From contig JAPLWH010000014.1 in NCBI GenBank assembly GCA_026396715.1, positions 8,063 through 72,062 of the forward strand: a stretch of DNA of 64,000 nucleotides, given 5' to 3'. Positions 20,954 to 44,910 of the stretch are shown here, one piece after another (position 1 is the stretch's first letter; every line of letters begins with the position of its first letter). The notes beneath the pieces were generated by a model. The model saw only the letters and a program-made list of their open reading frames with translations. It ran no database searches and was not told the origin of the DNA. A program made the translations under genes and the position numbers. Origin of the DNA: Candidatus Kaiserbacteria bacterium (GTDB taxonomy: Bacteria; Patescibacteriota; Minisyncoccia; Phycocordibacterales; Phycocordibacteraceae).

Positions 20954-21033
20954 CCCGTTAGAAATGGAATTGGGGTGCTGCCGTTGCGGCATAGTTTTGG
21001 TATTCATAAATTGTTTTGAATTTCTAACGGGAC
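20954..21033. repeat. palindromic element copy a (cccgttagaaat ... atttctaacggg)
   Basis: 12-13-nt terminal inverted repeats around an 55-nt variable core. The proximal half abuts the ATG of the pilin-like gene. Confidence 0.7.
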
Positions 21034-22026
21034 TCATAGGCCGAAGAGGTTAAAGCTTTTCGCTGCGCCGAAAGAGAGAGTGAGATTAGTATTTGCGGTC
21101 GTGGAGTTGCCAGTCGAGGCGGTAACCGAGAGCGACGCCGTCCCTTCCCCATTTCCCGACGGTCGGAGCGTTATGGTGCTGCCCGTTTGAGCCGATTCTC
21201 CGTTTAAGAACCATTGGAGAAGTGGTGAGCCACTAGTTGTCGGTAAGGAGAATGGTGCGGCAAACAACGACGCCTCAGCGCCGGTAATAGCGTATTGCTC
21301 GGGGAGTGCATGGTCGAAGAGGATGCCGAGCAGCGCATCGTTCTGGTAAATACGGAGGGAAGGTTCTTCCGCAGCAAGCGAGAGCGACGCGCCACCGACG
21401 AGACTTCCATTGGGGCTCGTGACCGCGACGGAGACCGAGCGTGCGCGGTACTGGAGCGGCGACGCGACCAAGATTGCCGTCCGCCCGATGCCCGAGGAAT
21501 TTGCGATCTGTCGGTCGTCGACCGACCATGCGTATGAGAGCGTATTGGGCGCGAGCGTCTTCCCTCGCGCATCTTGGAAGTTCGCCATCGCAACGACGCG
21601 CACGCTCCCCTGGAGTGGTATCAAGGGCTTACCAAGGTAGAGCGACGGTGCCGAAGAGATCGGCTCAGCGACAAGTACGACGTCTTGCGGCTGGATGAAT
21701 ATCGACTGGACATAGGGCACACCATTTGAAGAAATCGTTACTTTTACGTTTGTGACACTTCCTGCTTTCCCGAGCGGGATGCTGAGGGGCTGTACAGCAC
21801 CTCGGTAGAATTCTTTTCCGGCGAGTGCGACGGTCATGACGGCATTGGCAAGATCGAGAGTATTTGAGAGGAGAGAGATCGTCGCCTGTCCGTATGGTGT
21901 CGGGTATTGTGGGCGCGCCGAGACCGTAAAGGATGCGCTGTCGGCGCCGCTCCCGAGGGATTGCGCGTCGGCAGTCGACGGCAGGAGCGCGAGAATGAAA
22001 AAAGCAGCGAAGAGATAGGAACTCAT
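21034..22026 (-). CDS. secreted hypothetical protein
   Basis: Signal peptide (FAAFFILALLPSTADA). No recognisable domain. Confidence 0.45.
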   Translation of the reverse strand: MSSYLFAAFFILALLPSTADAQSLGSGADSASFTVSARPQYPTPYGQATISLLSNTLDLANAVMTVALAGKEFYRGAVQPLSIPLGKAGSVTNVKVTISSNGVPYVQSIFIQPQDVVLVAEPISSAPSLYLGKPLIPLQGSVRVVAMANFQDARGKTLAPNTLSYAWSVDDRQIANSSGIGRTAILVASPLQYRARSVSVAVTSPNGSLVGGASLSLAAEEPSLRIYQNDALLGILFDHALPEQYAITGAEASLFAAPFSLPTTSGSPLLQWFLNGESAQTGSTITLRPSGNGEGTASLSVTASTGNSTTANTNLTLSFGAAKSFNLFGL

Positions 22027-22055
22027 GCTCCTAGTATATAGCCTTTCTGGAATAC

Positions 22056-22820
22056 TTATGCCGCTTTGCGCAGTTCGTCGGGGATATTTTTTCCTCGCGA
22101 CGTCTTCCCTGCCCGCTCCGAAGGGAAACGCAAGACACTCGCTGGTGTGCCGGTAGATTCCTCACCCTCTTCCCCTCCCTCCTCCATCTCCATCACTTCT
22201 TGTTGTTGAGCGGCGTTCGCCGGAACTTCTTGGAACTGTCTCATTTCAGCGGCGCGTTGCTGGCGTTCTTGAATCTCCGCAGCAGCATTCTCCGAATGAT
22301 ATTTTTTCAAGGTCTTTTCGTCGTTTTTGATTTGCGTGCGATACATCCTTAGTACTGTAGCGGTAAGTGCCGGCAGCGAACCGAGAATGGGAACTTCGCT
22401 GAGGATAAGACTCCCTCCGAACCAAAGGATGTTTTCTTCGAACAGGCGCGCATTTGTTCCCAGTATCCAAAGAACGATTGTGAGCCACCCCATGAGTCCG
22501 AGTGCCATAGCCAAAATGATGCCAAATGTCGCGAAGAGTGGTGAGCCGAGGGATCCTGCTGCTGCGGCTGCTGATCCGCAAAACATGCCGGCGACTTTTA
22601 CTGCAGTCGCGCCACCGCCAACCACTGCGGCCGCTTTCGCGGTGCAATAGACCGCGGCGAAGGATGGGCCGAAAAACCAAAATTGCTCGCTTATGAATCG
22701 GAGGATATCAAAGACGATTGCGACCGCGAGAACGGGCGTCGCCTTCGTCCATGTCATCGCCTCGGGCGGCTTACTGATTCTTCGTGAGGGCATGGCGGTC
22801 CTTCTCCTGTTTGATAGCAA
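22056..22820 (-). CDS. polytopic membrane protein (possible VirB6/TrbL-like channel component)
   Basis: Four to five TM helices and a charged C-terminal tail. Located directly downstream of VirB4. Confidence 0.4.
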   Translation of the reverse strand: MLSNRRRTAMPSRRISKPPEAMTWTKATPVLAVAIVFDILRFISEQFWFFGPSFAAVYCTAKAAAVVGGGATAVKVAGMFCGSAAAAAGSLGSPLFATFGIILAMALGLMGWLTIVLWILGTNARLFEENILWFGGSLILSEVPILGSLPALTATVLRMYRTQIKNDEKTLKKYHSENAAAEIQERQQRAAEMRQFQEVPANAAQQQEVMEMEEGGEEGEESTGTPASVLRFPSERAGKTSRGKNIPDELRKAA

Positions 22821-24591
22821 GAACCTGTGAAGGGTCGGAAGTAATGATCTGGTCTTCGGTGTAGCTTGCGACGATCTTTATCGCGACGTGTTTGAGTCCC
22901 GCGAAGAAGAGTCCCTCCCCCACCCCCGCTTCGAGCAAGAGATATTTCTCTTCATCGGTCAGGTTGAAGGTCTGTTGCAGGACATCAATCGTTGTCGGCG
23001 ATTGCTTGAGCAATAGTTGTAGCGATGAGTTTGTGAGGATCGGCCGCCCATAGGGACTCTTCAAGAAGTCTTCGACGTCTTGGGTAATGGTACAGACACC
23101 TAGGTAGTATTTACGACCGCGTTTCGCGACGGAGTAAAGGAACGAGGCAGTGTCTTCGCTCTTCATCATCCACCAGGCTTCGTCGATGACGAGTAGGCGC
23201 TTCTTCAGGTCATGGCGCACGGCATTCCAGATGTAGTGCGTGATGATATACATCGCGACCGGCTTCAGCTCGTCTTCCATGTCGCGCACCGAAAAGACGA
23301 CGAATTGCTGCTTGAGGTCTATGTTTGTCGGCTGATTGAGGAATCCTGCCCAGGTACCGCGCGTGTATTTGGAAAGACGCTCGACGAGCGATTCGCTTCC
23401 CTCCATGCCGGAGAGTACCTGTTCGAAGTCGGAGAGCGACGGCGATTCCGCACCGGTAAAATCGGCGTCGCCGGTAATGTCTTTGAGCGCATAGGTCTCG
23501 CTGATGGCGCGGTCGATGATGGCGTCTTCTTCCGGACTCAATCCGGAGAGCATGATGCGGAAGAGTCCGACGAGCGCGATGATGTTGGAACGCAGGATGT
23601 CCTTCGGGTCTTCGTCTTCTTTTACCGGAGGCAGGTCGAACGGGTTGATGTGATGCTCGGAAGAGAGCGATATATGGAATGAGCGTCCGCCCGTCGCTTC
23701 CGCGAGCTGCTCGTATTCGCGCTCGGGATCAATGACGATGATGTCGGTGCCGAACATGAGTGAGCGCAGGAGCTCGAGCTTCGTTGCATAGCTCTTTCCG
23801 GAGCCGGATTTCGCGAAGATGACGGAATTGTAGTTCTCGAGCGAGAAGCGGTCGAAGAGGATGAGGGATGAGTTGTGGCGATTGATGCCGTAGAGGATGC
23901 CGCGATCGCTCGTGAGGTCGAAAGACACGAAAGGAAAGAGCGACGAGAGCGGTGCGGAATCGAGTTTCGAATTGACGAGGAGCTCGTCGGTGCCGAGCGG
24001 GAGGCACGAGCGGAAGCCTTGTTCCTGCTGGAAGAGCGCCGGCTTGGTGTAGACGAGCTTCGCGTCGAGGATGCCGCGGATGTCCCCTTCCGTCTTATCG
24101 ATCTCTTCTTTGGTGTCACCGTAGAGCGCGAGGTAGAGCCCGACGTCAAAAAGTTTTTCCTGAGCTTGCTGCAGATTGTCACGCAACGTTTCGAGATCCT
24201 GGTACGCAGTGTCGAGCAGTGGATCGCGGACGAGTCCTTTCGCTTCACGTTCGCTGATCTGACTCTGAACCTCGGCAACTTTCTTCTGGAAGCCACGGAG
24301 TGCGACCTCGGTCTCTATCGGATGGATGAATATGGAAATATCGAGCACTTTGTCGAGATTGATGACGGGCGAAAACCAACTATCAGAAAGGAATCGTGGG
24401 TATGAAATCGTGTAGAACACCCGGGCAAACTTTTCTCCGAGCTCGATTTCGCGCGAACTTATCTTGAGTGCTGCCGGAGCGATCGTGTCAACAAGGTCCA
24501 GGGAGCCCTGGCGGTAGATATCGGACGGCAGAACCGGGATGATCGCCGGTGCCTCTTCTTTCTTTCGACCAAGGAAATCAAGCAGTGCCAT
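22771..24591 (-). CDS. virB4: VirB4/TraC-family type IV secretion ATPase, ATPase portion
   Basis: Walker A AKSGSGKSYATK, Walker B LLVIDEAWWMM. Homology extends across the full VirB4 C-terminal two thirds. Confidence 0.85.
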   Translation of the reverse strand: MALLDFLGRKKEEAPAIIPVLPSDIYRQGSLDLVDTIAPAALKISSREIELGEKFARVFYTISYPRFLSDSWFSPVINLDKVLDISIFIHPIETEVALRGFQKKVAEVQSQISEREAKGLVRDPLLDTAYQDLETLRDNLQQAQEKLFDVGLYLALYGDTKEEIDKTEGDIRGILDAKLVYTKPALFQQEQGFRSCLPLGTDELLVNSKLDSAPLSSLFPFVSFDLTSDRGILYGINRHNSSLILFDRFSLENYNSVIFAKSGSGKSYATKLELLRSLMFGTDIIVIDPEREYEQLAEATGGRSFHISLSSEHHINPFDLPPVKEDEDPKDILRSNIIALVGLFRIMLSGLSPEEDAIIDRAISETYALKDITGDADFTGAESPSLSDFEQVLSGMEGSESLVERLSKYTRGTWAGFLNQPTNIDLKQQFVVFSVRDMEDELKPVAMYIITHYIWNAVRHDLKKRLLVIDEAWWMMKSEDTASFLYSVAKRGRKYYLGVCTITQDVEDFLKSPYGRPILTNSSLQLLLKQSPTTIDVLQQTFNLTDEEKYLLLEAGVGEGLFFAGLKHVAIKIVASYTEDQIITSDPSQVLAIKQEKDRHALTKNQ

Positions 24592-24592
24592 A

Positions 24593-25258
24593 TTAATTAT
24601 CTAAGCGGATAGGGTTTTCGAGCTCTCCCGGATTGAAAGAGCGATAGAGGAGCTCGATGGCTTCTTCAGTGCCGAGAGGGACTGCGCGGACGCCGGTACC
24701 AGCTAAGCCGCCGATGACGAGCGAAAGACGCTGTTCAAGTTGTGCGCGATCTTCTTCGAAGGAAGTCGCCGCTGCCGCGCTTTTCGCCCCGGCGCTCTCG
24801 CGACGCAGGAAGCCGACGGCGCGCGCGGCGGAGACATGCGGCGCGAACGGTACGACAATATAGAACGACTTGGTCATGATGTTCGCCTGGTCAGTGAAGG
24901 AACGTACGAATTCGATGTATTCGCGCAGCTGTATCCGCATGAGCTCGGTCTTTTGTTCCGGCTCCTTCCCTTCTAGTAAGGCAAGGTACGGGCGCAAATC
25001 CATCTTGCGAGAGTTCACCACGATCTGTATCGAGAAATCGAGCGTGTTGAGGAAATTCTGAAAGCCGAGCGTGATCGCGTGCTGCTCGTCAGCGGATTTA
25101 AGTCCGAAGTTTATGGAAGAACAGAGGAGTACGCCACGGTACCCGCCGTCTTTGAGGATGATCGTACCGTTCCGGATCTCTTTGACCGGAACGAATTGTT
25201 GCGTCGCACCTGCGGGTTTTTCAGTCATATCAGGATTCTTTATGTGGTGTGGTGACAT
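24593..25258 (-). CDS. VirB4 N-terminal domain encoded as a separate ORF
   Basis: FVPVKEIRNGTIILKDGGYRGVLLCSSINF resembles the N-terminus of Gram-positive VirB4 homologs (PrgJ/TcpF). Its stop lies 1 nt before the ATG of the ATPase ORF. Confidence 0.6.
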   Translation of the reverse strand: MSPHHIKNPDMTEKPAGATQQFVPVKEIRNGTIILKDGGYRGVLLCSSINFGLKSADEQHAITLGFQNFLNTLDFSIQIVVNSRKMDLRPYLALLEGKEPEQKTELMRIQLREYIEFVRSFTDQANIMTKSFYIVVPFAPHVSAARAVGFLRRESAGAKSAAAATSFEEDRAQLEQRLSLVIGGLAGTGVRAVPLGTEEAIELLYRSFNPGELENPIRLDN

Positions 25259-25667
25259 CGAGCGACCAAGCGAGATCGGAAAGTCTTCCGCGTGTCAGTC
25301 TCGGGGTGTGGGCGGCTTTTTTGAGCGCTGCTTCTGCTTCCACGGCCGCCGCTGCGGCGGCCGTGACATTCTTTTCCGACTGCATAGGCTCATGGTGCTT
25401 CCAGAGAAAGAGTTTTGCGCCTACGTAGTAATTAAAACCGGCTTCGAGCATTTCGATAAATGATTTTCCGTTTACCCGATAGAATGCGAGCGCCGCTGCG
25501 AACGCTGCAACCGGTAGCGAGAACAAGACGGCGAAGATGAATGAAAAATAAGCAAAGAAGGTGACGCAAAGTCCGGTCGCACCTGCAATGTAAATGAATT
25601 GACGCAGGGTCAGCGGCCCAATGATCTTATCTTCGACCTCGATGAATTGCGGAACGTGGTACTCCAT
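25230..25667 (-). CDS. PrgI-family / VirB3-like small membrane protein
   Basis: N-terminus MEYHVPQFIEVEDKIIGPLTLRQFIY resembles the PrgI-family N-terminal motif and has two TM helices. Lies immediately upstream of VirB4. Confidence 0.5.
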   Translation of the reverse strand: MEYHVPQFIEVEDKIIGPLTLRQFIYIAGATGLCVTFFAYFSFIFAVLFSLPVAAFAAALAFYRVNGKSFIEMLEAGFNYYVGAKLFLWKHHEPMQSEKNVTAAAAAAVEAEAALKKAAHTPRLTRGRLSDLAWSLDVTTPHKES

Positions 25668-25740
25668 TGTCTTCAGTATACCAGTCGCTGCCCCGCACTG
25701 TCGTCACGCACATGTGTAATACAATTTTTGTGGACGTACC

Positions 25741-26001
25741 CTAAGCCCCGCTCCCCTTAATGTCTTTCGATTGAATCGGGCTCTCGATGCCTGGTGACCA
25801 TTTTGCTTGAATCGTGCCGAATTTCTTTTCGTATTCGTCGATTTGATGAGCGAGGCTCTGTACGAGTCGCTTCATGTGCGGTGGCGTGAGCGCGTAGGCT
25901 TGCGCTGTTTCTCCGACGCTCATGATCATGACGAAATTTTCTTCCGAGTGTCCGGCGGCGACATTTTCGCAGAATTGCTTGGGGATTTTATTGAAGTCCA
26001 T
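25741..26001 (-). CDS. small conserved hypothetical protein (86 aa)
   Basis: Only the C-terminal part (MDFNKIPKQF...) of track ORF 25741-26373 is taken. The rest overlaps the M50 protease in another frame. Confidence 0.4.
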   Translation of the reverse strand: MDFNKIPKQFCENVAAGHSEENFVMIMSVGETAQAYALTPPHMKRLVQSLAHQIDEYEKKFGTIQAKWSPGIESPIQSKDIKGSGA

Positions 26002-26008
26002 AGGCGTA

Positions 26009-27381: not shown

Positions 27382-27398
27382 ATGATAGATTTTATCTC

Positions 27399-30499: not shown

Positions 30500-32292
30500 A
30501 TCAATTTGATGTCGAGAAGTCGCAGGCGCACCGGGTTCCCGCGCGAGAAGGTGTCGCGCTCAAGATGCGCGATCAGATTTGCTTGTCCGCCCGCCGTGAG
30601 CTTCTCCGCCGCTCGAGCGATTGATCCTTTTACAAAAAACGTAACCGCTTCGACGGTGCGTCCGGAGCCGTCAGCTGACACGATCTTCAATTTCAAATGC
30701 TCCTCCCCTTTTCCGAAGCGTGAAATCTCTCGCACGATCACTTCGCGCAAAAGGAATACCGGCTTCGCATTTTGCTGGCCAAAAGGTGCGAGCTTCTCAA
30801 TTTTTAAAAGAAATGACGTCGTCGCTTCTTCCGGCGTGATGTGCGCATCGGCGCGCTGCACCAAGCTGTCTTCAGCTGTTTTCCCTTTCAGCATTTTCGT
30901 ATGCGCTTCGACGAGCCGGTCTTCAAGAAAAAATACTTCGGTATCGTGGACGGCGAAACCGCCCGCCGCCGCATGTCCGCCGAATTTGACGAATGCTTTT
31001 TCTGTCGCGCGCATGAGTTCCATAATGTGCGTCCTGCCGCCGCTTCGTACCGATCCTTTCAAACGCATGTTCCCTTCCCTCCCCCATAAAAATACTGGCC
31101 GCTCATATTCATCTGCAATCGTGTTTGCAACAAGTCCGAGAAGTGCGGGTCGCCAGTCAGGATCGCCGAGTGCGATTATGCTGCGCATCTCGCCGCGTTC
31201 TTTGAGTCGCGTGTGTACCGCGCGCGTGATCGCGCCCGCCTGAGCCTTTCGCTCGCGGTTCAACTTCTCCAATTTCTTTGCAAGTTCGTCCGCTTCGTTT
31301 TCATCGGCGGTCGTGAAGAGTTGGAACGCATCGCGCGCATTGCCCATCCGGCTCGCGGCATTTACGCGTGGCGCAATCATGAAGCCGACATCGTCTTCAG
31401 TGATCGAGTGCTGCTCCACCCGCATCCCGCGGCATAATTTTTGAAGCCCGATCCTCGGTGACTTACGCATCACTTTGAGCCCGTAGGTGGCGAGCACACG
31501 GTTCTCACCTGTAAGCGGCACCATGTCGGCGATGGTCGCGAGTCCGACCATATCGAGAAGCCACTTCTCCCACCCGACCGGAACTTTCTCGCGGAGTGTT
31601 GGAGCAACAGCAAGTGTCGCACAGACGAGTTTCCACGCGACACCCGAGCCGCACAAACTACGGAACGGATACGTCTCGTCGGGGCTTGTCCCGTTAGAGG
31701 CGCTCGCCTCCGGCGAGCCAGGCACCTCGGGTGCCTTATCTCTAACGGGACGGGCATTCGGGTTCACGACCGCGAAGGCATCGGGTAATTTTTCTCCCGG
31801 GAGGTGGTGGTCGGTAATGATGACGTCCATGCCGAGCTCTTTCGCACGCGCGACCGGAACGACATCGGTAATGCCCGAGTCGACCGTCACGATGAGCTTC
31901 ACTCCCCTCTTTGCGAGCTGCTCGATGCCGCCGACATTCATGCCGTACCCTTCGTCATGTCGGTGTGGAATATAGTTTTCAAAATCAGCGCCAGCTTTTT
32001 TCAGAAAGTCGTGCAGCAGCACGCCGCCCGGAATGCCGTCGCAGTCGTAGTCGCTCCAAACCGCAATCTTTTCTTTCGCCAGAATCGCAGCAGCAAATCG
32101 TTCGGCTGCTTTGCGCATGTCGACCATCAGGAACGGATCGTGCAGGTGCTCATCGTAAGACGGATTCAAAAACTTTTCCGCTTCTTCTTTCGTCAGGACG
32201 CCACGGCGCACTAAGAGTGCCGCGGTGAGGTCGTCGTGTGCGTCGAGTTCGCCGCGGAGCACCGCATCGAGTGGGTCATGGAGCGGAAACAT
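30496..32292 (-). CDS. recJ: single-stranded-DNA-specific exonuclease RecJ
   Basis: DHH motifs (DYDCDGI, ITDHH) and the DHHA1 region. Confidence 0.9.
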   Translation of the reverse strand: MFPLHDPLDAVLRGELDAHDDLTAALLVRRGVLTKEEAEKFLNPSYDEHLHDPFLMVDMRKAAERFAAAILAKEKIAVWSDYDCDGIPGGVLLHDFLKKAGADFENYIPHRHDEGYGMNVGGIEQLAKRGVKLIVTVDSGITDVVPVARAKELGMDVIITDHHLPGEKLPDAFAVVNPNARPVRDKAPEVPGSPEASASNGTSPDETYPFRSLCGSGVAWKLVCATLAVAPTLREKVPVGWEKWLLDMVGLATIADMVPLTGENRVLATYGLKVMRKSPRIGLQKLCRGMRVEQHSITEDDVGFMIAPRVNAASRMGNARDAFQLFTTADENEADELAKKLEKLNRERKAQAGAITRAVHTRLKERGEMRSIIALGDPDWRPALLGLVANTIADEYERPVFLWGREGNMRLKGSVRSGGRTHIMELMRATEKAFVKFGGHAAAGGFAVHDTEVFFLEDRLVEAHTKMLKGKTAEDSLVQRADAHITPEEATTSFLLKIEKLAPFGQQNAKPVFLLREVIVREISRFGKGEEHLKLKIVSADGSGRTVEAVTFFVKGSIARAAEKLTAGGQANLIAHLERDTFSRGNPVRLRLLDIKLI

Positions 32293-32423
32293 GTGAACGC
32301 TATTGTATACCCCATGAGATAATTTATCCCGCCTTCGCTGTCCATATTCTCCTTGGTCCGATAAGTTATTGCCAGAGGCATCTCGTCTTTAGAAACATCT
32401 ATCTCACGGGGTATACTTCTGAA

Positions 32424-32834: not shown

Positions 32835-33982
32835 GAAGAGATCGCCTTGATGCCTGGGAGAGTTCCTTTCGCGAGAAAGTCGAGCATCGCGCCGCCGCCG
32901 GTGGAGACGAATGAGAAGTGCGGTAAGAGTCCGAGGTTTTCTATCGCAGCGATCGTGTCGCCTCCGCCGATGACCGAGTGCGCACCTGAGGCTGCAACCG
33001 CCCGTGCAAAGGCGTCGGTCGCGTCGATAAATCCGTTTTCATAATTCCCCAAGGGACCGTTCCAGAGAATCGTTTTTGATTTTTGCGCGAGGCTGAAAAG
33101 GAGTGCCGAGGTTCCCGGGCCGTGGTCGAGGATCACTTCATCAGTCCGTACGTCTCCCGCCGTTGCGACACGCGCTCCCGCGCGCTCTGTTGGTGTGCCA
33201 ACAGCAGTTGCCGAGATGACGAGGGAGTCTATGGGTATGACGAGTTTCGGATTTGCTAAGAGTTTTTTGATAGCGTTAGCATCTGCATTTGAAACAAGTG
33301 ATTTCCCCACCTCGTGTCCCGCCACTTTGAGAAAATCATTCGCGAGCGCGCCGCCGACGAAGACATGGTCGTACGTTTTTAGCAGCGTCGTGAGCACGGC
33401 TTCTTTCGTGCTGAATTTCGCTCCGCCGATGACGGCGAGCGAAGGGTGTATGGGCATAAGTGCTCGTGATAATTCGCGGACTTCTTCTTCAAGAAGGAGT
33501 CCAGCATAGCTCGGCAGGAGCTCGGGGACGCCGATGATTGACGCGTGTGCGCGGTGACACGTATCAAAAGAATCCTCAACAAAGATATCGGCGAGCGCGG
33601 CGAGCTCGTGTGCGAACGTGCGATCATTTGCAATCTCCCCTTTGTTTCGTCGTAAGTTTTCGAGCACGAGCACTTGGCCTGGCGCGAGGTTGCGGATTGC
33701 CGCGCGCGCGCGGACGCCGACCGTCTCGCCGAAAAACGAGACACCCAAAAGAAGTTTTCCGAGCGCTCTTGCTACAGGTTCGAGGGTCTCTGTCCCCTGT
33801 TCCCCGAGGTGTCCGATGAGTACGACTTTTGCGCCACGTGCGGCAAGATATTTTATAGTCGGCACGGCGCGGCGTAAGCGATAGTCATTTATGACCTCGC
33901 CGTTTTCAATAGGGACGTTCAGTGCTGCCCGCACGAGTATCGGAATGTTTTCAAATATTTGAATGTCGCGAATGGTGCGCAT
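32819..33982 (-). CDS. pgk: phosphoglycerate kinase
   Basis: PGK N- and C-domain motifs (RVDFNVP-like N-terminus, GGGA...). Confidence 0.9.
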   Translation of the reverse strand: MRTIRDIQIFENIPILVRAALNVPIENGEVINDYRLRRAVPTIKYLAARGAKVVLIGHLGEQGTETLEPVARALGKLLLGVSFFGETVGVRARAAIRNLAPGQVLVLENLRRNKGEIANDRTFAHELAALADIFVEDSFDTCHRAHASIIGVPELLPSYAGLLLEEEVRELSRALMPIHPSLAVIGGAKFSTKEAVLTTLLKTYDHVFVGGALANDFLKVAGHEVGKSLVSNADANAIKKLLANPKLVIPIDSLVISATAVGTPTERAGARVATAGDVRTDEVILDHGPGTSALLFSLAQKSKTILWNGPLGNYENGFIDATDAFARAVAASGAHSVIGGGDTIAAIENLGLLPHFSFVSTGGGAMLDFLAKGTLPGIKAISSHPSN

Positions 33983-34108
33983 CCCGTTAGAAATAGAACA
34001 CGAACATCGCTAGGGAGATGTTGTGACCTATCTGATTAGTGATAATGCAGTTCATGTTCGTAATAATTTTAACAGACGGGTTCGTTATTTCTAACGGGAC
34101 GCATCCCG
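33983..34108. repeat. palindromic element copy b (cccgttagaaat ... atttctaacggg) between tpiA and pgk
   Basis: Terminal inverted repeats as in copies a and c. The proximal half abuts the pgk ATG. A third half-site (catcccgttagg) overlaps the tpiA stop. Confidence 0.7.
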
Positions 34109-34852
34109 TTAGGTAAGCTGCTTCACGAGTGCTGAAAAGGTGAAGGGATCGATCGTCGCGTGCCCAATGAGAAATCCTTCGACGCCGGAGTCCGCCGCAA
34201 GCGCGCGGATATTTCCCGGCTCGACGGAACCGCCGTAGAGAACGAATGAATGGCGCGAACTTTTTCCAGGCAGAAGCTCCGCGAGTACTTTTCGGATGTA
34301 GAGCGTCATCTCCGCAAGGTCATTGGACTCGATTGCGTCAGCGGCGGTTTTCCCGATTGCCCAGAGTGGTTCGTACGCGACGATTACCTGCGAACGTTCT
34401 TTTGCGGTAAGCGGCTCAAGAGCAAGTGTAATTTCTTCGCGCACGTAAGCGAGATAGCGCCCTTCCCCATCGCGCTCATGTTCACCGACGCAGAGGATGG
34501 GGGTGAGGCCATGCGCAAGAGCATGCGCAAGTTTCTCGGCGATGATTGCATTGGTCTCGCCGAGTGCTCGCCGTTCGGAATGTCCGATGATCACATACGT
34601 CGCCCCAGCTGCGGCATACGCCTGCGCGGTTGCTTCACCAGTCTGTGCTCCGCCGGTCGTCGCCGAGACATCTTGCGCAGCGAAAGCAATTTTCGATTTG
34701 TTGTTTGCGGCGAGCACGCCGAGAAAAGGCACGGGCGGCGCGAGCACAATGGTGATGTCGCTTGTGCGAGCGAGTTTTTTACTCGTCGCAAGCAGCGACT
34801 TCGCTTTCCGTATGTCTTCCACGTAGGCCTTCCAGTTTGCAACTATAAGCAT
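34109..34852 (-). CDS. tpiA: triosephosphate isomerase
   Basis: IVANWKAY and IIGHSERR motifs and the TIM barrel signature. Confidence 0.9.
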   Translation of the reverse strand: MLIVANWKAYVEDIRKAKSLLATSKKLARTSDITIVLAPPVPFLGVLAANNKSKIAFAAQDVSATTGGAQTGEATAQAYAAAGATYVIIGHSERRALGETNAIIAEKLAHALAHGLTPILCVGEHERDGEGRYLAYVREEITLALEPLTAKERSQVIVAYEPLWAIGKTAADAIESNDLAEMTLYIRKVLAELLPGKSSRHSFVLYGGSVEPGNIRALAADSGVEGFLIGHATIDPFTFSALVKQLT

Positions 34853-38361: not shown

Positions 38362-40110
38362 CTATTCGGAGACTGCGCGAAGGACTTCTTCGAGACTTGT
38401 GATGCCGTGAGCAGCTTTGTAGAGACCATCTTCGAACATTGTCAGCATGCCCTCTTTCTTCGCTTGCGTCTCAAGTGCGTCGGTCGTGCCCGAGCGAAGC
38501 ATGATGTCGCGGAGGGTAGGTGAAATGGCGAGTACTTCATGAATGCCGATACGACTCTTGTAACCATCTTCGCATTCGGCTGACGGATGAGGTCGATAGA
38601 AAGGAACACTATCAAGTGTGGAGTCTTCTTGAATAAGTTTTTCATCTTTGAGAGCTTTGAATGCGCTAGCGAACTGCTCTTCGCTAGCAATCTTCAGTCG
38701 TGCAGCACGGTCGAGGGTATAGGAATCTTTCGGTTCGCAGAGCCGACGAACGAGACGCTGTCCCACGATGACGCGTATCGTAGAGGCGAGAAGGAATGGC
38801 TCGACGCCCATGTCGATGAGGCGCGGAATAGCTCCAGCCGCGCTGTTGGTGTGAATGGTTGAAAGTACTAAGTGACCAGTGAGCGCCGCATTGATCGCGA
38901 GCGACGCGGTCTCGCTGTCACGGATTTCGCCGACCATGATGATGTCGGGATCCTGACGCACGAGCGAGCGCAAGCCATTTGCGAAGGTAAAGCCTATCTG
39001 CGGATTTACCTGTGTCTGATTGACGCGCTTCATCTGGTATTCAATCGGGTCTTCTACTGTTGAGATGTTTACGTCCGGCTGATTCAGGATGTCGAGCATT
39101 GTGTACAGCGTTGTTGTCTTACCGGATCCCGTCGGGCCTGAGATAAGAATGATGCCGGTCGTCTGTTTCAGGGCATGATGGATGCGTTCCATATTTTCTC
39201 CGTGGAGCCCAAGCGCATCCAGCGTGAATCCCTCGCCAGTCTCGCGCAAAAGACGCATGACGGTCTTCTCGCCGAAGAAGGTCGGGAGTATCGAGACGCG
39301 GAAGGATACTTGATCGGCTTCGGTCTCCATCTTGAATCGTCCGTCTTGCGGAAGACGCTTCTCGTCGAGTTTCAGGTTAGAGAGCACTTTGATGCGTGCG
39401 ACGATTCCTGCTGCGGCAGGTTTCGGCAGTGTCATCGCGTCGTGCAGGATGCCATCGATGCGATAGCGGACGAGCACTTCTTTTTCCATGGGTTCGATAT
39501 GGATGTCAGAAGCGCCCTGCACGATAGCGTGCCGTAGGAGCGTATCGACGATACGCACGATTGGCAGATCCTCAGCCATTTTTTTCAAGTCCTCGCCTGA
39601 AAGATCTTTGTTGTTGTCCGCGACAGCACTGATCTTCCCTGCTTCGGTTGAGATAATGTCGCCGAATTCGTCTTTGAGCGATTTCTGGTACTGCAGGAGC
39701 GCGAACTTAATGCTCTCAGTGTCGGTCAGTCGTGGCAATATCTTTAGGCTCGTCTTCTTGCGCACTGAATCAATGGACGCAAGGTCGTTTACATCGAGCA
39801 TTGCCACTTCAAGCGAGTCCCCTTCTTTTTTGAAGGCGATGATGTTGTGCGTGCGTGCGATTGGTTCCGGTATGAGCGCGAGCACATCGGCGGCTACGCG
39901 ATTGTCTTTTAAGTTTACGAAAGGAATGCCGAGGACGTATGCTTGGATGCGGCGCAAGGCGTCTTCGGTCAATGAGCCGCGTGAGACGAGCATGTCGCCG
40001 AGCGGCTGTCCGCGCTTCGTGGCTTCAGCAGCGGCAGCATCGATCTCCTTCTTGGCGACAAGGCCCGAGTCGATGATGAATTCTTTCAGCTCCCCTTCCG
40101 AAACGTGCAT
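38362..40110 (-). CDS. pilB: type IV pilus assembly ATPase PilB/GspE (copy 2)
   Basis: Walker A ISGPTGSGKTTTLYT, motif IMVGEIRD, GspII_E N-domain. Confidence 0.9.
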   Translation of the reverse strand: MHVSEGELKEFIIDSGLVAKKEIDAAAAEATKRGQPLGDMLVSRGSLTEDALRRIQAYVLGIPFVNLKDNRVAADVLALIPEPIARTHNIIAFKKEGDSLEVAMLDVNDLASIDSVRKKTSLKILPRLTDTESIKFALLQYQKSLKDEFGDIISTEAGKISAVADNNKDLSGEDLKKMAEDLPIVRIVDTLLRHAIVQGASDIHIEPMEKEVLVRYRIDGILHDAMTLPKPAAAGIVARIKVLSNLKLDEKRLPQDGRFKMETEADQVSFRVSILPTFFGEKTVMRLLRETGEGFTLDALGLHGENMERIHHALKQTTGIILISGPTGSGKTTTLYTMLDILNQPDVNISTVEDPIEYQMKRVNQTQVNPQIGFTFANGLRSLVRQDPDIIMVGEIRDSETASLAINAALTGHLVLSTIHTNSAAGAIPRLIDMGVEPFLLASTIRVIVGQRLVRRLCEPKDSYTLDRAARLKIASEEQFASAFKALKDEKLIQEDSTLDSVPFYRPHPSAECEDGYKSRIGIHEVLAISPTLRDIMLRSGTTDALETQAKKEGMLTMFEDGLYKAAHGITSLEEVLRAVSE

Positions 40111-40211
40111 ATAGAAATAGTATAGCGCGTCCCGCCATAGGCGTGACGCGCTTTTCACACATTCTTTAATTTGAATTAAGTCACAGAAGAGGTAATGTTA
40201 AGAAACTCTTT

Positions 40212-41273
40212 ATGCTCGGAGATGAACAACAATACGAATTGTATTGGAAAATAACCCTAGAATACTCTGATTTTTTTGGGGAAAAATTTCGAACGTGTCT
40301 TGCAGTTATCGTTGCGTTCATTGACGAGCAAAAAGATATTCCATTTTCTTCGGAAAAATACGAAGCGCTCCAGAAGCGAGTCGAAGGAGTGTTTCCAAAA
40401 GCCGACTCCGCATCCACTCGGAAAAGTATAAATCAGTACGTCAAATTAGGATTTATTCTTCCCGAATTGATTTTCTATCATCCAGCAACTAAAGCCTTTT
40501 TGCATGAAACTAGTCTGGGGAAGAAAAAAGCCCTGCTCTCTAAAATCATCTACTCGGATTCTAGCTTTGACCGATCGGTCACGAATCAGTCCGATAAAAA
40601 AGAGATAAACTTCCTGATCAAAACGCTGCAGAAGGTCGGGACTCTATCGAAAGACGGCGTTCTTGCGCTCATGACCGTAGACGTAAGTGCAGTTCCTAAC
40701 GGGTTTTTGGATCGAGCTGGTCTAGAAGAACGTCGTCGTCTTGTTGATGCAATCAATTTCGGGGAAAGAAAATACAATCAACTGAGTTATCTTTGGTCGC
40801 TCTTAAAACAACTCGATGGCTTAGTGGTACAAGACGATACCATTTCTCTGCAGGTAGACATGGCGGTCGTCGGGGATGAAGTAGATGATCTTCCGAAGAA
40901 GCGGGATCCGTATCTGCACCAGATATACAAAAATCAGCTCAAAGTAGAGTCGAATGATCAATTTGGCAGCATCGCATGTATGCTAGAGAAGCTTGCATAC
41001 CCATCTCTAGTCGCTAGTCACATCAAGCCGTTCAGCATTTCCTCGGAAGTGGAGGCTTATGACGTAAACAACGGATTGCTTTTAAGTAAAAATATGGACT
41101 TTCTGTTCGATCAGGGATACATTTCCTTTTTGTCGGATGGCTCGATACTCATTTCAGAACGGTTACATATCGGCGTAAGAGAATATCTGAAACCATTCAC
41201 TCTTGGTAAGACATTTCTTGCGGAGGCACGACTTGCATATCTCGAATATCATCGAGCACATGTGTTTTCTTGA
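40212..41273 (+). CDS. HNH-family nuclease, candidate restriction endonuclease of the adjacent methyltransferases
   Basis: C-terminal ASHIKP...NGLLLS...FDQGYISF matches the HNH restriction-endonuclease fold. Low-GC gene next to two DNA MTases. Confidence 0.5.
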   Translation: MLGDEQQYELYWKITLEYSDFFGEKFRTCLAVIVAFIDEQKDIPFSSEKYEALQKRVEGVFPKADSASTRKSINQYVKLGFILPELIFYHPATKAFLHETSLGKKKALLSKIIYSDSSFDRSVTNQSDKKEINFLIKTLQKVGTLSKDGVLALMTVDVSAVPNGFLDRAGLEERRRLVDAINFGERKYNQLSYLWSLLKQLDGLVVQDDTISLQVDMAVVGDEVDDLPKKRDPYLHQIYKNQLKVESNDQFGSIACMLEKLAYPSLVASHIKPFSISSEVEAYDVNNGLLLSKNMDFLFDQGYISFLSDGSILISERLHIGVREYLKPFTLGKTFLAEARLAYLEYHRAHVFS

Positions 41274-42276
41274 GATTTTTCACGACAAAGAGATACTCCG
41301 TATTCCTATCCTTGTTCTCCTTGCCTGTTACCTTGTAGCGATGGGGTTTTTCAATAATCTCTATAGAACTCGCATATTTTGAAAGCAATGTATACAGCTC
41401 TTCTTTGCTTGGGAAGGAAGAGTTGTTATAGCTCATAACCCAATATTTGTATGAGGTAAGGTTCGCAAATAATCTGTCGAAGAGTTCTAGGGCAGACTTT
41501 CGATTTACGAAATTGTTTTTGAATGGCTTTAATTTCTTCGATTCTATGTATTCGTCTAACGCGCCATAAAATCCGAAATAATTATTCATCGTGCCTGAAT
41601 ACGGGGGGTCGAGATATATCACGTCTGCCTGTACCGTTCCGAGTAGATCAAAAATATCCCTGTTGTACACACGGTTATCCTTTCCGTTGTCAAAGACCGC
41701 TTGATTATATGCGGTTAGATTTGCGAGCACATGCTCTCGGAATGAAAGATTGTGATATGCGCGTTTTCTCCCATACGTTTTATAGCTGTGAACTTCATCG
41801 CGAAGCTTTTTTATCGTATTCCAATCAATAGTAAATCTGGAGTACGGCATTTTTCGTATCATGGCGCGCCGGAGTAAGCTCAGTGCCAATGCTTTTTTAT
41901 ACGTCGAGCCGAGTTTCTCCACATTTTTCCGGTATCGATCAAGCTCCATGCATTCATTGGGAAAAAAATAAACATTCGCGTAGTTTTTATACATAAAACC
42001 TTTTACTGGTTTCCCCGCGAAGAGGATAGTCAGGTCTGATTCTTCCAAGGTTTCCCGCTTATTTTCTATAAGCGCAGTAGCCAACTGAGCATTAATTTTC
42101 AGAATGTCGTTGCTGATGACGCGCATCCCTCTTTTTTTCGCTTCGTATCCGACGGAACTGCTTCCGGCGAAAGCGTCGAATACGGACTCTGCAGCTATCG
42201 GGAATAGATCGCAAATCCAAGAAGCAAGCTTTTCTTTATTCCCGATGAAGTTTATTTTTGGAGGTTTATTTTTCAT
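41197..42276 (-). CDS. N6-adenine DNA methyltransferase, D12/Dam class
   Basis: Motif I FAGSSSVG and motif IV DPPY (VIYLDPPYSG). Confidence 0.8.
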   Translation of the reverse strand: MKNKPPKINFIGNKEKLASWICDLFPIAAESVFDAFAGSSSVGYEAKKRGMRVISNDILKINAQLATALIENKRETLEESDLTILFAGKPVKGFMYKNYANVYFFPNECMELDRYRKNVEKLGSTYKKALALSLLRRAMIRKMPYSRFTIDWNTIKKLRDEVHSYKTYGRKRAYHNLSFREHVLANLTAYNQAVFDNGKDNRVYNRDIFDLLGTVQADVIYLDPPYSGTMNNYFGFYGALDEYIESKKLKPFKNNFVNRKSALELFDRLFANLTSYKYWVMSYNNSSFPSKEELYTLLSKYASSIEIIEKPHRYKVTGKENKDRNTEYLFVVKNLKKTHVLDDIRDMQVVPPQEMSYQE

Positions 42277-43300
42277 TGCGAATTACTTTCTTCAGTCTCT
42301 GGGCAATCATTTTTGCGAGTAGGGGAGGTACTGCGTTTCCGACCTGTTGCTGCTGAGAAATCTTTGAACCGGTAAACACAAATGAGTCGGGAAATGATTG
42401 AATGCGAGCCAGTTCGCGGACGGTCAGCGCTCTATTTTGCGAGTAATGAAATATCTTCCGCATGTCTCCGGTAACGCATACGGAGGGCTCAGTACTAGTA
42501 TAACGAATGTATTTTCTACTATCCCCGGTTAGCGGTCTGAGCGGAAGAGGAATTTGAGACCGGTCTCCTCCGTCTTTTACATACGCCATTTTTTTGAGCA
42601 TCTGAGGCGTATGTCTCATGGCTTCATGATTGGGGATAACTGAAGAAGCTCCTACTTCCAGGGTCGGAAGGTCATGTATCGCATCCCAAACGGTTTTGAT
42701 GCGGTTCGTTTTCTCCTTTGAGAATGCAAAAGGTAGATCAGATTTAGTGCCGACGAAAATAACTCGTCTTCTGGATTGCGGTACGTCATACTCTGCTGCG
42801 TTTAAGATCGTACAAGAGACGGTGTACCCAAGGTTTGAAAAGCACTCGATTATTTCGGCGCGCGTCTGACCTTTGTTGTGGCTGTACAGGCGAGCGACGT
42901 TTTCCATAACGAAGTATTCCGGCTCTATTATTTTTATCACACGAGCAAATTCGCGGAATAAACGATTACGAGGATCAGCTATAAATTTCCGACCGATGCT
43001 GCCAGCCATGCTAAAGCCCTGACAGGGCGGACCTCCTATGACGACATCCACGTGTTGTTTTTTCAGTATTTTCTTTATTTCTTTTGCGTCTATCTTTGAA
43101 ATGTCAGATTGGATAAGTGTATGATTAGGGAAATTAGCGCGATACGTTTTACAAAAGTTCGGCTCGTTGTCTAAGGAGAAAATATTTTTGAACCCGGCTT
43201 TTTCAAATCCGAGCGCTAAGCCGCCGGCACCGCAGAAAAGATCAATATAGGTCAGATCTGCTTGTTTTTTCTGAGCCATACTATTGCCTGAGTATAGCAA
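42266..43300 (-). CDS. dcm: C-5 cytosine-specific DNA methyltransferase
   Basis: Motif I LFCGAGGLALGF, motif IV GGPPCQGFS, ENV motif. Confidence 0.9.
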   Translation of the reverse strand: MLYSGNSMAQKKQADLTYIDLFCGAGGLALGFEKAGFKNIFSLDNEPNFCKTYRANFPNHTLIQSDISKIDAKEIKKILKKQHVDVVIGGPPCQGFSMAGSIGRKFIADPRNRLFREFARVIKIIEPEYFVMENVARLYSHNKGQTRAEIIECFSNLGYTVSCTILNAAEYDVPQSRRRVIFVGTKSDLPFAFSKEKTNRIKTVWDAIHDLPTLEVGASSVIPNHEAMRHTPQMLKKMAYVKDGGDRSQIPLPLRPLTGDSRKYIRYTSTEPSVCVTGDMRKIFHYSQNRALTVRELARIQSFPDSFVFTGSKISQQQQVGNAVPPLLAKMIAQRLKKVIRNEK

Positions 43301-43340
43301 AATTTGGTCGTAACGACTTAATTAAGTCTGAACTGATTTC

Positions 43341-43368
43341 TTGACGCGCAGAACGCATCTGGTATACT
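43341..43368 (+). promoter_or_regulatory. sigma70-like promoter for nusA (TTGACG-16 nt-TATACT)
   Basis: Near-consensus -35 and -10 elements with a 16-nt spacer. A GC hairpin plus T-run follows in the leader. Confidence 0.5.
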
Positions 43369-43433
43369 TTGTTTTATCTGGAAGGTCCGCGACGCGGACT
43401 TTCTTATTAAAAAGTGCGACATACATATTCCAT

Positions 43434-44801
43434 ATGATTGATTTAAAGACTATCAATGCGGTGCTCGGGGAGTTCGAGGATCGCGGCATCAGCCGCGCGA
43501 CGATGATTGACGCTATCGAGAGCGCGATGGCGACCGCCTACAAGCGCGAATACGGAAAGCGCGGCCAGGTCATACGCGCCAAGCTCGACCTCAATTCCGG
43601 CACGATCGCTTTTGAACAAGTAAAGACCGTCGTCGATGACACGACGGTGCGCTTCCCTGCGCCCGATGAGGTCATTCCCGAGGAGCAGCAGCATCATGCG
43701 CACCCGTTCCACGCGGAGGAAGAGCACCTCGCCGAGGGCGAATTGCCTCGTTTTGATTCCGAAAAGCACATCCTCATCGACGATGCGAAGCGCATGAAGC
43801 GCGGTGTCGCCGTGGGCGAGGACATCATCTTCCCGCTCGAGCCGCAGGACGATTTCGGCCGTATTGCGGCGCAGACTGCCAAGCAGGTGGTCATCCAGAA
43901 GGTGCGCGAGGCCGAGAAGCTCTCGATGATGGAGGAGTTCGGCGAGAAGAAGGGTCAGATCGTCGGCGGCATTGTGCAGCGCATGGAACGCGGCGCGATC
44001 TTTGTCGACCTCGGCCGCACGACCGGCATCATCCCGTACGAGGAGCAGATTCCGGGCGAGCGTTATCGCATGGGCGAGCGCATCCGCGCGTATCTTTACG
44101 CGGTGGACGAAGGTTTCCGCGGCGTCTATTTGCGCCTTTCCCGCGCGCATCCGCAGTTCGTCGTGCGACTTTTCGAGCTTGAAGCACCGGAGCTCGCTTC
44201 GGGCGCTATCGAGATTAAGGCACTTGCACGCGAGCCGGGCAGCCGCACCAAGATCGCACTCGCGTCGCGCGATGCTCATATCGATCCGGTCGGTTCCCTC
44301 GTCGGTCAGCGCGGTGTGCGCGTCTCGACCGTCATGAGCGAGCTCGGCGGCGAACGCATCGACATCATCGAGTGGAATGCCGACGCGAAGGAATTCGTGA
44401 AAGAGGCCCTCTCCCCTGCGACCCCGACCGAAGTTGTGCTGAATGAAGTTGATCATCGCGCGACGGTTACCGTCGCCGAGGACGAACAGTCGCTCGCTAT
44501 CGGCCGTGGCGGTCAGAACGTGCGTCTTGCCGCGAAACTTACGGGCTGGAACATCGACATCATATCGACGGGAGGTGCTGAAGTGGCGGAATCAAACGGC
44601 GAATCAGTCGCGGTCGCAGCAACCGAAGAGGATCCCGCTGAAGCGGCAGGCGTAATGCCGACCGAGAGCGTCGAGATCATTACCGATGAAGCGCCGCAAG
44701 TTACCGGCCTTCCGGCTGAAGAGGAATTGGCTTCCCTTCCTGCGAGCGATGAGACCGTCGCTGACAAAGAAGAGGATCGCGACAAAGCGAAAGACGAGTA
44801 A
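43434..44801 (+). CDS. nusA: transcription termination/antitermination factor NusA
   Basis: NusA N-domain (MIDLKTINAVLGEFEDRGISR), S1 and KH domains, acidic C-terminal tail. Confidence 0.9.
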   Translation: MIDLKTINAVLGEFEDRGISRATMIDAIESAMATAYKREYGKRGQVIRAKLDLNSGTIAFEQVKTVVDDTTVRFPAPDEVIPEEQQHHAHPFHAEEEHLAEGELPRFDSEKHILIDDAKRMKRGVAVGEDIIFPLEPQDDFGRIAAQTAKQVVIQKVREAEKLSMMEEFGEKKGQIVGGIVQRMERGAIFVDLGRTTGIIPYEEQIPGERYRMGERIRAYLYAVDEGFRGVYLRLSRAHPQFVVRLFELEAPELASGAIEIKALAREPGSRTKIALASRDAHIDPVGSLVGQRGVRVSTVMSELGGERIDIIEWNADAKEFVKEALSPATPTEVVLNEVDHRATVTVAEDEQSLAIGRGGQNVRLAAKLTGWNIDIISTGGAEVAESNGESVAVAATEEDPAEAAGVMPTESVEIITDEAPQVTGLPAEEELASLPASDETVADKEEDRDKAKDE

Positions 44802-44828
44802 ATCGCCGATGCTGTATAATCGATTCAT

Positions 44829-44910
44829 ATGAATCCCGTTAGAAATACCGAAATGAGCGGGAGGAAATGCACGAGAATTATCCTCGTTTACTAAACTAAT
44901 TTCTAACGGG
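44829..44910. repeat. palindromic element copy c (cccgttagaaat ... atttctaacggg) upstream of ppa
   Basis: The terminal inverted repeats end exactly at the ppa ATG. Confidence 0.7.

Follow-up and report, generated by a model that had tools for sequence, protein, structure and literature searches.

The closest described system to the elements analysed here is Ssn/NTS. Ssn proteins are 94-aa single-domain GIY-YIG nucleases (clade cd10448) that bind the NTS/SRM hairpin in single-stranded DNA (ssDNA) and cut a few nucleotides upstream of it, in the variable flank; their genes are flanked by the repeat, an architecture that the authors remark is like that of an insertion sequence, and Rickettsia is listed among the SRM-rich genera (Chenal et al., Nat Commun 2025, PMC11893778). 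Here we analyse a 64,000-nucleotide stretch of a Candidatus Kaiserbacteria genome (contig JAPLWH010000014.1, positions 8,063 to 72,062; hereafter the window), in which short elements bounded by terminal inverted repeats (TIRs) occupy the start codons of pgk, ppa and a type IV secretion system (T4SS) pilin-like gene. These copies probably represent one mobile family of TIR elements that sit on start codons, carry a translated leader and have GIY-YIG-coding relatives.

The family shares with the Ssn system a GIY-YIG protein of about 90 aa with a single domain, and a multi-copy hairpin repeat, also present near genes, that flanks the gene for it. Its ends, TCCCG...CGGGA, are like the NTS palindrome (ATTCCCGCG...CGCGGGAAT), and upstream cutting in the variable flank would be compatible with cleavage at the border of a short duplication. 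The arrangement differs, however, in that the two flanking repeats are here the arms of one long hairpin around the gene or a variable core, rather than two complete short hairpins. The degenerate SRM motif HGTCWY..RNCYNB had no matches on the window copies, the GIY-YIG elements or the minimal hairpins described below, and the terms 'duplication', 'start codon' and 'Patescibacteria' do not occur in the main text of PMC11893778. The 4-bp target-site duplication (TSD), the empty sites, the start-codon insertion and the leader ORF are new relative to that description.

Bacterial MITEs (miniature transposable elements with inverted repeats), such as Correia/NEMIS, ERIC, RUP and Nezha, are likewise short, non-coding, TIR-bounded, TSD-flanked and multi-copy, and form hairpins in RNA that are sometimes co-transcribed with their neighbours (PMC10969869). 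Known MITE families are, however, lineage-restricted, share an interior, derive from DDE insertion sequences and lie in intergenic DNA, for example at TA (PMC10969869), whereas the present family keeps only its ends, spans phyla, enters the start codon and has a GIY-YIG-coding relative. Start codons are unmentioned in this 2024 review of prokaryotic MITEs. Rickettsia palindromic elements, in the account given there (Ogata et al. 2000, in PMC10969869), lie in frame in unrelated protein genes and add a peptide to the product. The likeness is one of insertion behaviour, a copy in recJ and at least 12 others being likewise in frame; as that account presents them, the Rickettsia elements are 100–150 bp long with a conserved interior, and start-codon insertion does not figure in it. 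REP/BIME repeats with RAYT, and IS200/IS605, resemble the family as hairpin repeats spread by a small ssDNA-hairpin nuclease whose gene is repeat-flanked, but these use HUH Y1 enzymes, make no TSD and are species-specific, in contrast to the 4-bp TSD and GIY-YIG protein found here. Integron attC sites (RYYYAAC...GTTRRRY, without duplication) were considered and rejected: the order is reversed here, with GTTAGAA first and TTCTAAC last, and a TSD is present. The element could be a variant of a MITE or of an Ssn-type hairpin repeat, and a GIY-YIG protein acting as transposase is the more novel possibility. The element was not found described in the literature, which was searched by motif and by concept.

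Three inverted pairs (copies a, b and c; Table 1) account for all six exact occurrences of the 12-mer CCCGTTAGAAAT in the window, and the 8-mer CCCGTTAG occurs 10 times against an expectation of 0.97, a count reached in none of 100 shuffles. The initial annotation had described three palindromic copies sharing only their termini, and this is borne out, the three cores being unrelated in sequence to one another. Its halves of 12–13 nt also stand, since the repeat is 13 nt long when the terminal T...A is included (TIRs TCCCGTTAGARAT...ATYTCTAACGGGA; T-CCCGTTAGARAT), but its core of 55–93 nt is revised to spacers of 54, 92 and 52 nt separating the 12-mers of copies a, b and c. The coordinates further confirm that the distal half abuts three start codons: in gene orientation, the arm ATTTCTAACGGG runs straight into an ATG, that of the T4SS-pilin-like gene (a PF18895 match), of pgk or of ppa. 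A fourth copy, d, lies in frame within a recJ-like ORF, where it encodes PVRDKAPEVPGSPEASASNG and contains two internal hairpins; its TIR is that of the GIY-YIG elements. The window elements are 62–118 nt long with perfect 13-nt TIRs, and all four fold as long-stem hairpins (z −4.2 to −7.2). When the window was searched with Rfam 15, tRNAs alone reached the gathering score and nothing credible was found at E ≤ 10 around copy a. In gene orientation, 4-nt direct repeats flank copy c (TGAA/TGAA), copy b (TGCG/TGCG) and, with one mismatch, copy a (TGAG/TGAT).

The extent of the family was measured by a database scan of one genome per species with the pattern TCCCGTTAGAA-N40-70-TTCTAACGGGA, which gave at least 120 loci, and by a second, independent scan of metagenomes with the AGAG variant of the TIR; the pooled set holds 271 distinct copies. 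The family has more than 200 loci, mostly in Patescibacteria, with others on contigs labelled Planctomycetota, Omnitrophota, WOR-3 and others, the phylum assignment of some of these contigs resting on bin labels and gene content. The neighbours of some such copies (Tat-signal sulfatase, HisA, CysE) fit hosts outside the candidate phyla radiation (CPR). TIR variants in the family and its relatives include CCCGTTAGA, CCCTGTTAAAT, TCCCACACATAAC and CCCRTGAGATA. An exact 4-nt repeat directly outside the T...A ends flanks 101 of 146 copies, compared with 0–2 of 146 in shifted controls, and 78 of 118 copies in the metagenome set, compared with 1 in the control. Of the 181 exact repeats in the pooled 271 copies, 85 are TGAA/TTCA, 28 TGGA/TCCA, 16 TTGA/TCAA, 14 TAAA/TTTA and 13 TGAG/CTCA; TTAA is not among the 181. 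The 4-nt flanking repeat is a TSD, and the copies are one family of small mobile elements with 13-nt TIRs, a 4-bp TSD and cleanly empty orthologous sites. In nested or tandem copies, one element lies within or right beside the end of another (L013 4620–4789, L032 1965–2134 and L115 1619–1796; also the L013 and L063 junctions), which suggests that the junctions of resident elements are themselves preferred targets.

Minimal 29-nt versions, CCCCGTTAGAAATCAGATTTCTAACGGGG with ends C...G, were observed in frame at L123 14039–14067 and L128 about 11655–11685. One minimal version lies in comEC with the duplication CTTG, and a degenerate one in recJ gives the peptide SPIRNQISNGA; TCCCGTTAGAAATCAGATTTCTAACGGGA is an example of a mini-element TIR hairpin. 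These minimal versions suggest that the ends alone may be sufficient for mobility. A separate 243-nt TIR pair, TCCCGTTAGAG-CCGCC...GGCGG-CTCTAACGGGA at L145 6482–6724, surrounds a tRNA-Thr gene and holds an apparent second tRNA, split, with its acceptor stem directly against the TIRs; it may reflect cargo capture or insertion around a tRNA.

Most copies lie on start codons. The terminal A of the element forms an ATG in 114 of 146 copies, 96 of which abut an ATG-initiated ORF of at least 70 codons, and in 200 of the pooled 271 (~74%). The upstream junction retains the old ATG with its native context, often a TAnnnT box 6–9 nt upstream, as for leaderless genes, and sometimes a Shine–Dalgarno (SD) sequence; genes in the window organism are largely leaderless. 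Compared with ordinary start codons from the same loci, insertion-site start codons differ only at +4 (A/G in 93%) and +5 (A in 84%, G in 16%, never C or T), and the target is therefore about A^TGRA, the caret marking the insertion point. When the elements were removed in silico, 251 of 740 ATGRA sites outside genes were predicted starts, an expectation that depends on crude gene calls. Real starts account for about 90% of ATG-type insertions, compared with at most 34% expected from the motif outside genes; motif preference alone is therefore insufficient to explain the location. The bias is also seen on Planctomycetota-type contigs, at 6 of 8 loci.

Other insertion sites were of three kinds. 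TTGA copies sit at −35 boxes, where TTGACA is rebuilt. TAAA copies are probably on stop codons, and the one examined (L027) lies in the loop of a terminator-like inverted repeat. Intragenic copies are inserted in frame in recJ, where they add 22 codons, and in at least 12 other genes; they encode a peptide of the form PVR...SNG, every one has (length + 4) divisible by 3, and none contains a stop. Direct repeats around a hairpin could also serve RNA-level removal or ribosomal bypass, with the duplicated codons as take-off and landing sites, as in T4 gene 60 or the mitochondrial 'byp' elements, the latter reportedly hairpins flanked by direct repeats (Lang et al. 2014). We consider this extremely improbable: removal is unneeded where every intragenic copy keeps the frame and is stop-free, no gene was found to be intact solely after removal of its element, and the flanks are direct repeats rather than complementary, leaving no bulge-helix-bulge.

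Orthologous sites were compared in syntenic relatives (L123–L128) obtained via RecJ homologues, the window RecJ being 100% identical to a protein of a Candidatus Kaiserbacteria metagenome-assembled genome. The pgk site (TSD TGCG) is filled in the window, L123 and L126, with orthologous copies of 116–118 nt, and empty in L124 (TAAGC-ATGCGCAG), L125 (TAAACCT-ATGCGCACC) and L128 (ACCTAACG-ATGCGT). The ppa site, filled in the window, is empty in L126, where TAA-gg-TATACT-ggcgagt-ATGAAC forms a leaderless promoter with one ATGAA. A DUF3467 site is likewise polymorphic for presence and absence among L123–L128, with a single copy of the duplicated bases when empty. The recJ site (62 + 4 nt, or 22 codons) is filled in 9 and empty in 7 of 16 aligned homologues; a neighbour-joining tree places the filled state at the base, with four or more nested occurrences of the empty state, which implies repeated scarless loss. 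From these clean losses, the element appears able to leave without a scar.

The presence/absence polymorphism upstream of pgk and ppa, for which the initial annotation had proposed comparing orthologues, and the TSD statistics together with the ~74% of copies that form an ATG, for which it had proposed tabulating motif pairs against gene starts, uphold one of its models, a MITE-like insertion with preference for start codons. Its other models, paired regulator half-sites with DNA looping or a terminator or attenuator hairpin cassette, would fit palindromic halves at variable spacing beside gene starts, and the hairpins are indeed stable. Both are very improbable in view of the flanking 4-bp duplications, the empty orthologous sites, the in-frame copies in recJ and other genes, and the occurrence of the element at hundreds of unrelated genes across phyla; there is moreover no U-tract after the stem in the window copies and no match to an Rfam family. 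A third half-site that it had noted between tpiA and pgk does overlap the tpiA stop codon, but is mostly native tpiA–pgk junction, the empty site of L128 having ACCTAACGATGCG.

The window also holds a second, related inverted-repeat element, in the interval that separates recJ from the divergent HIT gene (Table 1). It has ends CCCRTGAGATA (cf. CCCGTTAGAGATA) and a flanking 6-nt direct repeat, GTATAC, and is present in the window and L123 and absent from L124, L125 and L126, which have a single GTATAC. The RecJ homologues P0014, P0023 and P0095 carry other short lineage-specific in-frame insertions at other positions (for example HQNSFGAGRARE, LPAGRQGIG, PALSGVEG and QPSPRLWPAA), some of which may be further hairpin-element insertions.

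The element is entered from the old start codon in a particular frame, ATG-NNT-CCC-GTT-AGA, which bypasses the TAG of the left TIR. In this frame 38 of 75 cores are free of stops, compared with 14 and 14 in the other two frames, 26, 16 and 23 in the three frames of flipped elements, and 17.9 ± 3.4 in dinucleotide-preserving shuffles, none of 500 of which reached 38. The result was replicated in the metagenome set (22 of 36, compared with 11.7 ± 2.5). The upstream ORFs (uORFs) so formed end at the right-TIR TAA (TTC-TAA-CGGG-ATG), 4 nt before the rebuilt ATG, in 24 cases; in 7 others the stop is a TGA that overlaps ATGA, and the remaining 7 continue in frame. The commonest element length, 78 nt, places the TIR TAA in frame. 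In the window, reading from the old ATG gives an in-frame fusion with the pilin gene at copy a and, at copy c, a uORF whose stop lies 16 nt before ppa; a 6-codon mini-ORF in copy b does end on the TIR TAA. Two sequence motifs in the elements also depend on orientation: CGGGA occurs 15–35 nt from the 5' end in gene orientation in 30 of 103 copies, compared with 2 in reverse, and an SD-like motif precedes the 3' TIR in 17 copies in gene orientation, compared with 0 in reverse.

With insertion at A^TGRA, the old ATG stays with its native promoter or SD at the upstream junction, and the terminal A of the element and the duplicated TG rebuild an ATG at the downstream junction. These observations are consistent with the following mechanism. 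Translation of the element, begun at the old ATG, would be what keeps it harmless. Whichever of its three frames the ribosome uses to leave the right TIR, it would be passed to the rebuilt ATG: the first by the stop TTC-TAA 4 nt upstream of it, the second by a TGA overlapping ATGA, and the third in frame as TCT-AAC-GGG-ATG. A ribosome translating the element would unwind its terminal stem and then re-initiate, so that expression stays tied to the original initiation signals. Judging from these reading frames, we lean towards the view that the element is made harmless in this way, by translation from the old ATG with termination–reinitiation coupling. The earlier suggestion that the element substitutes for a leader is then partly retained: in this largely leaderless organism, the inserted element becomes the leader, apparently translated from the old start. 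The geometry resembles termination–reinitiation at operon junctions, where a stop lies 4 nt before the next start or overlaps it as ATGA, and similar native junctions are present in the window (ATGA before the pilin gene, and TAA-N4-ATG at the tpiA–pgk junction). What differs here is their source: a mobile element's end provides the stop, the spacer and the A of the ATG, and the element itself takes the place of the upstream 'gene'.

Three other explanations of the core were tried and rejected. For an element-borne promoter, TATAAT-like boxes showed no orientation bias (15 vs 10 and 31 vs 22). For CGGGA as a decoy hairpin freeing the AUG, the equilibrium unpaired probability was 0.33 in natural and 0.31 in flipped elements; the motif seems more likely to be left over from the GIY-YIG codons TAC-ACG-GGA-TAT (YTGY). 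A structured-RNA core was not indicated, as cores at start codons are rich in A and T and lack structure (median z about 0); structured cores are found only in the GC-rich intragenic type, without strand asymmetry.

The leader ORF also bears on whether the elements are simply selfish MITEs, with the A^TGRA motif and purifying selection setting their location, and the leader ORF and stop–restart geometry having no role in expression. The TSD and flank logo do reflect a real preference at +4/+5, the survivors away from start codons lie at other boundaries that the duplication preserves (TTGA −35 boxes, TAAA stop codons), and intergenic DNA is minimal in these genomes. A purely selfish element would, however, not predict the frame-specific depletion of stops, which was replicated, nor the strongly non-random orientation relative to the gene, nor the excess at real starts over the motif expectation or its recurrence on Planctomycetota-type contigs, and we regard this explanation as unlikely.

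Elements of 276–278 nt flanked by the same TIRs were found at six or more distinct sites (L174, L219, L132, L170, L249–257 and L258–261). Each has one ORF, encoding an 84–86-aa single-domain GIY-YIG nuclease (Pfam PF01541 over residues 3–69, E = 1e-17), which is oriented towards the host gene and uses the TIR stop as its own. These elements too are on start codons with a 4-bp duplication, for example TACAAT-N6-ATGGA^TCCCGTTAGAGAT...CTC-TAA-CGGGA^TGGA. The 84-aa protein has at least 1137 homologues in several CPR classes, the best 120 of which are 82–96% identical (110 of 84 aa, 5 of 83 aa and 5 of 92 aa), and its nearest solved relatives are the UPF0213 (cd10456) proteins 1ZG2 and 1YWL. Distant GIY-YIG homologues are bracketed by other perfect inverted repeats (CCCTGTTAAAT, TCCCACACATAACTTATG). 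The short copies L049, L054, L060 and L076 can each be aligned with the two ends of the 278-nt element, the pattern expected of internal-deletion derivatives. By analogy with the action of Ssn on ssDNA hairpins, the 84-aa nuclease may act in trans on the hairpin ends; the case that the short copies are non-autonomous relatives of the ~278-nt GIY-YIG elements, served by this nuclease in trans, seems to us evenly balanced. Only tentatively do we propose a new kind of transposon of ~280 bp, with an 84-aa GIY-YIG nuclease as the sole gene, which would act on the element's own hairpin ends as the mobilising protein. These ends would have become a universal translational adaptor, with an open frame on entry and a stop, an overlapping stop or an in-frame passage on exit, so that the transposon and its deletion derivatives could occupy start codons in several phyla, spare the genes from silencing and exit without a scar.

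A DDE transposase encoded elsewhere, for example one like that of IS1380 or piggyBac, could instead mobilise the elements, with the GIY-YIG gene as cargo or as an independent homing gene. Features shared with piggyBac/IS1380 are the 4-bp duplication with T...A bias, the scarless loss and ends that start with CCC (CCC...TAGAA-type ends), and the L016-type TIR CCCGTTAGAAAGAT may resemble the piggyBac end CCCTAGAAAGATA; nor are GIY-YIG enzymes known as strand-transferases. The differences are a TGRA target, with TTAA at none of the 181 exact TSDs, and an extra T/A between the duplication and CCC. No TIR pair 0.3–6 kb apart around a transposase-sized ORF or DDE transposase was found in about 1.7 Mb of loci, and inspection of the window ORFs, with 10 scanned against Pfam and the others read by eye, revealed no transposase. 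Membership in piggyBac/IS1380 was rejected, as TTAA is never used and there is no DDE ORF between or near the TIRs. The GIY-YIG gene is the only ORF found between these TIRs, and GIY-YIG homologues elsewhere have different perfect inverted repeats of their own, as co-evolution of nuclease and ends predicts. We therefore doubt that a DDE enzyme is responsible.

Beyond the crude gene calls and the bin labels mentioned above, several points weigh against our overall reading. The ATGRA target motif together with purifying selection could account for much of the start-codon enrichment. The leader ORF is open in only about half of the start-codon copies, the main uORF of copy b stops 85 nt before pgk, and equilibrium folding leaves the terminal stem closed in either orientation. 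No GIY-YIG gene was found in the 64-kb window, and the core resembles the interior of the GIY-YIG elements beyond the ends in only 8 of 164 short copies. GIY-YIG nucleases act by hydrolysis, catalysis of transposition is not known for them, and the GIY-YIG ORF could be cargo. Finally, orthologous copies keep their TIRs identical at 13 of 13 positions with cores at 65% and flanks at 62–77%, and two Saccharibacteria have an 83-nt copy in common at 100% identity (L049 3930–4012 and L064 3491–3573). Such in-place conservation is not predicted by a purely selfish model and hints at an additional function.

This conservation is what would be expected of domesticated sites, in which the stem serves as a protein-binding site or host RNA structure and mobility is only its origin. 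Candidate roles are translation initiation, mRNA stability, and ssDNA processing in transformation or conjugation (cf. NTS/Ssn in Neisseria); Ssn/NTS modulates transformation (PMC11893778). The aligned flanks around the identical 83-nt copy show scattered differences, the two genomes having diverged, and the hairpins of the recJ copy are kept by compensatory changes (4 of 6 helix-2 pairs; 98% of cells paired). The targets are, however, unrelated housekeeping genes, L124 and L125 lack any copies at the same loci without visible compensation, the perfect TSDs of two thirds of copies reflect recent movement, and templated mutation in quasi-palindromes can be another source of double changes that preserve a hairpin. 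Domestication seems quite unlikely; possible causes of the in-place conservation are a host-level or enzyme-linked constraint, or the templated mutation just mentioned. Capture of a native promoter into the core, proposed from L049 and L064, was dropped since the alignment was unconvincing.

The coordinates of the window copies and of other features are collected in Table 1. Among the latter, three paralogous ORFs with a helix-turn-helix (HTH) lie beside tRNA genes, one of them with a LAGLIDADG_3 domain, and these may be free-standing homing-endonuclease-like genes. A low-GC island (0.42, compared with about 0.54) between a type II secretion system (T2SS) ATPase gene and nusA contains one ORF for an HNH_2 endonuclease and a further two that show motifs of DNA methyltransferases (DPPY; GGPPCQGFS); such genes are missing at this position in relatives L126 and L128, and the island is probably an acquired restriction–modification module. 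Two identical 33-nt perfect hairpins, ACGAAACGCGCCGGC-N3-GCCGGCGCGTTTCGT, are ~1 kb apart and bracket an ORF.

Table 1. Positions of the TIR elements, their junctions and other features of the window (motifs of copies a and b in gene orientation)
Feature	Position	Strand	Details
Copy a, 80-nt TIR element at start codon of T4SS-pilin-like gene	20953–21032	−	arms 20953–20965 and 21020–21032; 12-mers 20954–20965 and 21020–21031; hairpin z = −4.3
Copy a gene-proximal TSD, TGAT	20949–20952	−	3 of 4 positions match other TSD copy
Rebuilt ATG of pilin gene	20951–20953		TSD TGAT + terminal A of copy a
Copy a old start codon and upstream TSD (ATGAG)	21033–21037	−	overlaps upstream-gene TGA as ATGA
ORF upstream of copy a	21034–22026		its TGA stop overlaps old ATG
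ORF from old ATG across copy a into pilin gene	20273–21037		in frame (MSPVRNSKQFMNTKTMPQRQHPNSISNG-MMKK...)
Copy d, 62-nt variant TCCCGTTAGAG...CTCTAACGGGA, in frame in recJ-like ORF	31689–31750	−	TIR TCCCGTTAGAGAT
Related inverted-repeat element between recJ and HIT gene	32305–32416		about 32311–32410
Copy b, 118-nt TIR element between tpiA and pgk	33982–34099	−	12-mers 33983–33994 and 34087–34098; rebuilt pgk ATG 33980–33982
Copy b gene-proximal TSD, TGCG	33978–33981	−	
Copy b internal mini-ORF, MFVFYF then stop	33987–34007	−	stop = TIR TAA, 4 nt before pgk ATG
Copy b uORF, MRPVRNNEPVC then stop	34104→34069		11 codons
Copy b old pgk start codon and upstream TSD (ATGCG)	34100–34104	−	opens 11-codon uORF
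TIR-like half-site CCCGTTAGG (CCTAACGGG in gene orientation)	34105–34113	−	overlaps tpiA stop codon 34109–34111
Copy c upstream junction, native leaderless promoter context	44815–44833	+	TATAAT 44815–44820, 8-nt spacer; old ATG 44829–44831; TSD copy TGAA 44830–44833
Copy c uORF from old ppa start codon, MNPVRNTEMSGRKCTRIILVY then stop	44829–44894	+	stop ends 16 nt before rebuilt ATG
Copy c, 78-nt TIR element between nusA and ppa	44834–44911	+	12-mers 44835–44846 and 44899–44910; terminal A 44911 = A of ppa ATG
Copy c downstream TSD, TGAA	44912–44915	+	
HTH ORF	2176–3009	−	tRNA-Lys 3010–3084
HTH ORF	55619–56326	−	tRNA-Gly 55561–55633
HTH ORF	58309–58989	−	tRNA-Gly 58231–58302
Low-GC island	40212–43300		
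33-nt hairpins	46268–46300, 47314–47346		ORF 46316–47398 bracketed

The family means that hundreds of CPR genes, and some genes of Planctomycetota-type genomes, carry a mobile hairpin inside the start codon. Gene calling is affected in several ways: by N-terminal extensions, by small 'GIY-YIG' or leader ORFs that immediately precede real genes, and by 20-residue insertions within conserved proteins. If the coupling holds true, the element would be a natural portable stop–restart cassette for leaderless and SD-led genes alike. Ssn-type GIY-YIG nucleases gain a testable link to transposition, through a 4-bp duplication, scarless loss and defined ends. More generally, the family suggests how selfish DNA survives in the most streamlined genomes, with almost no intergenic space.

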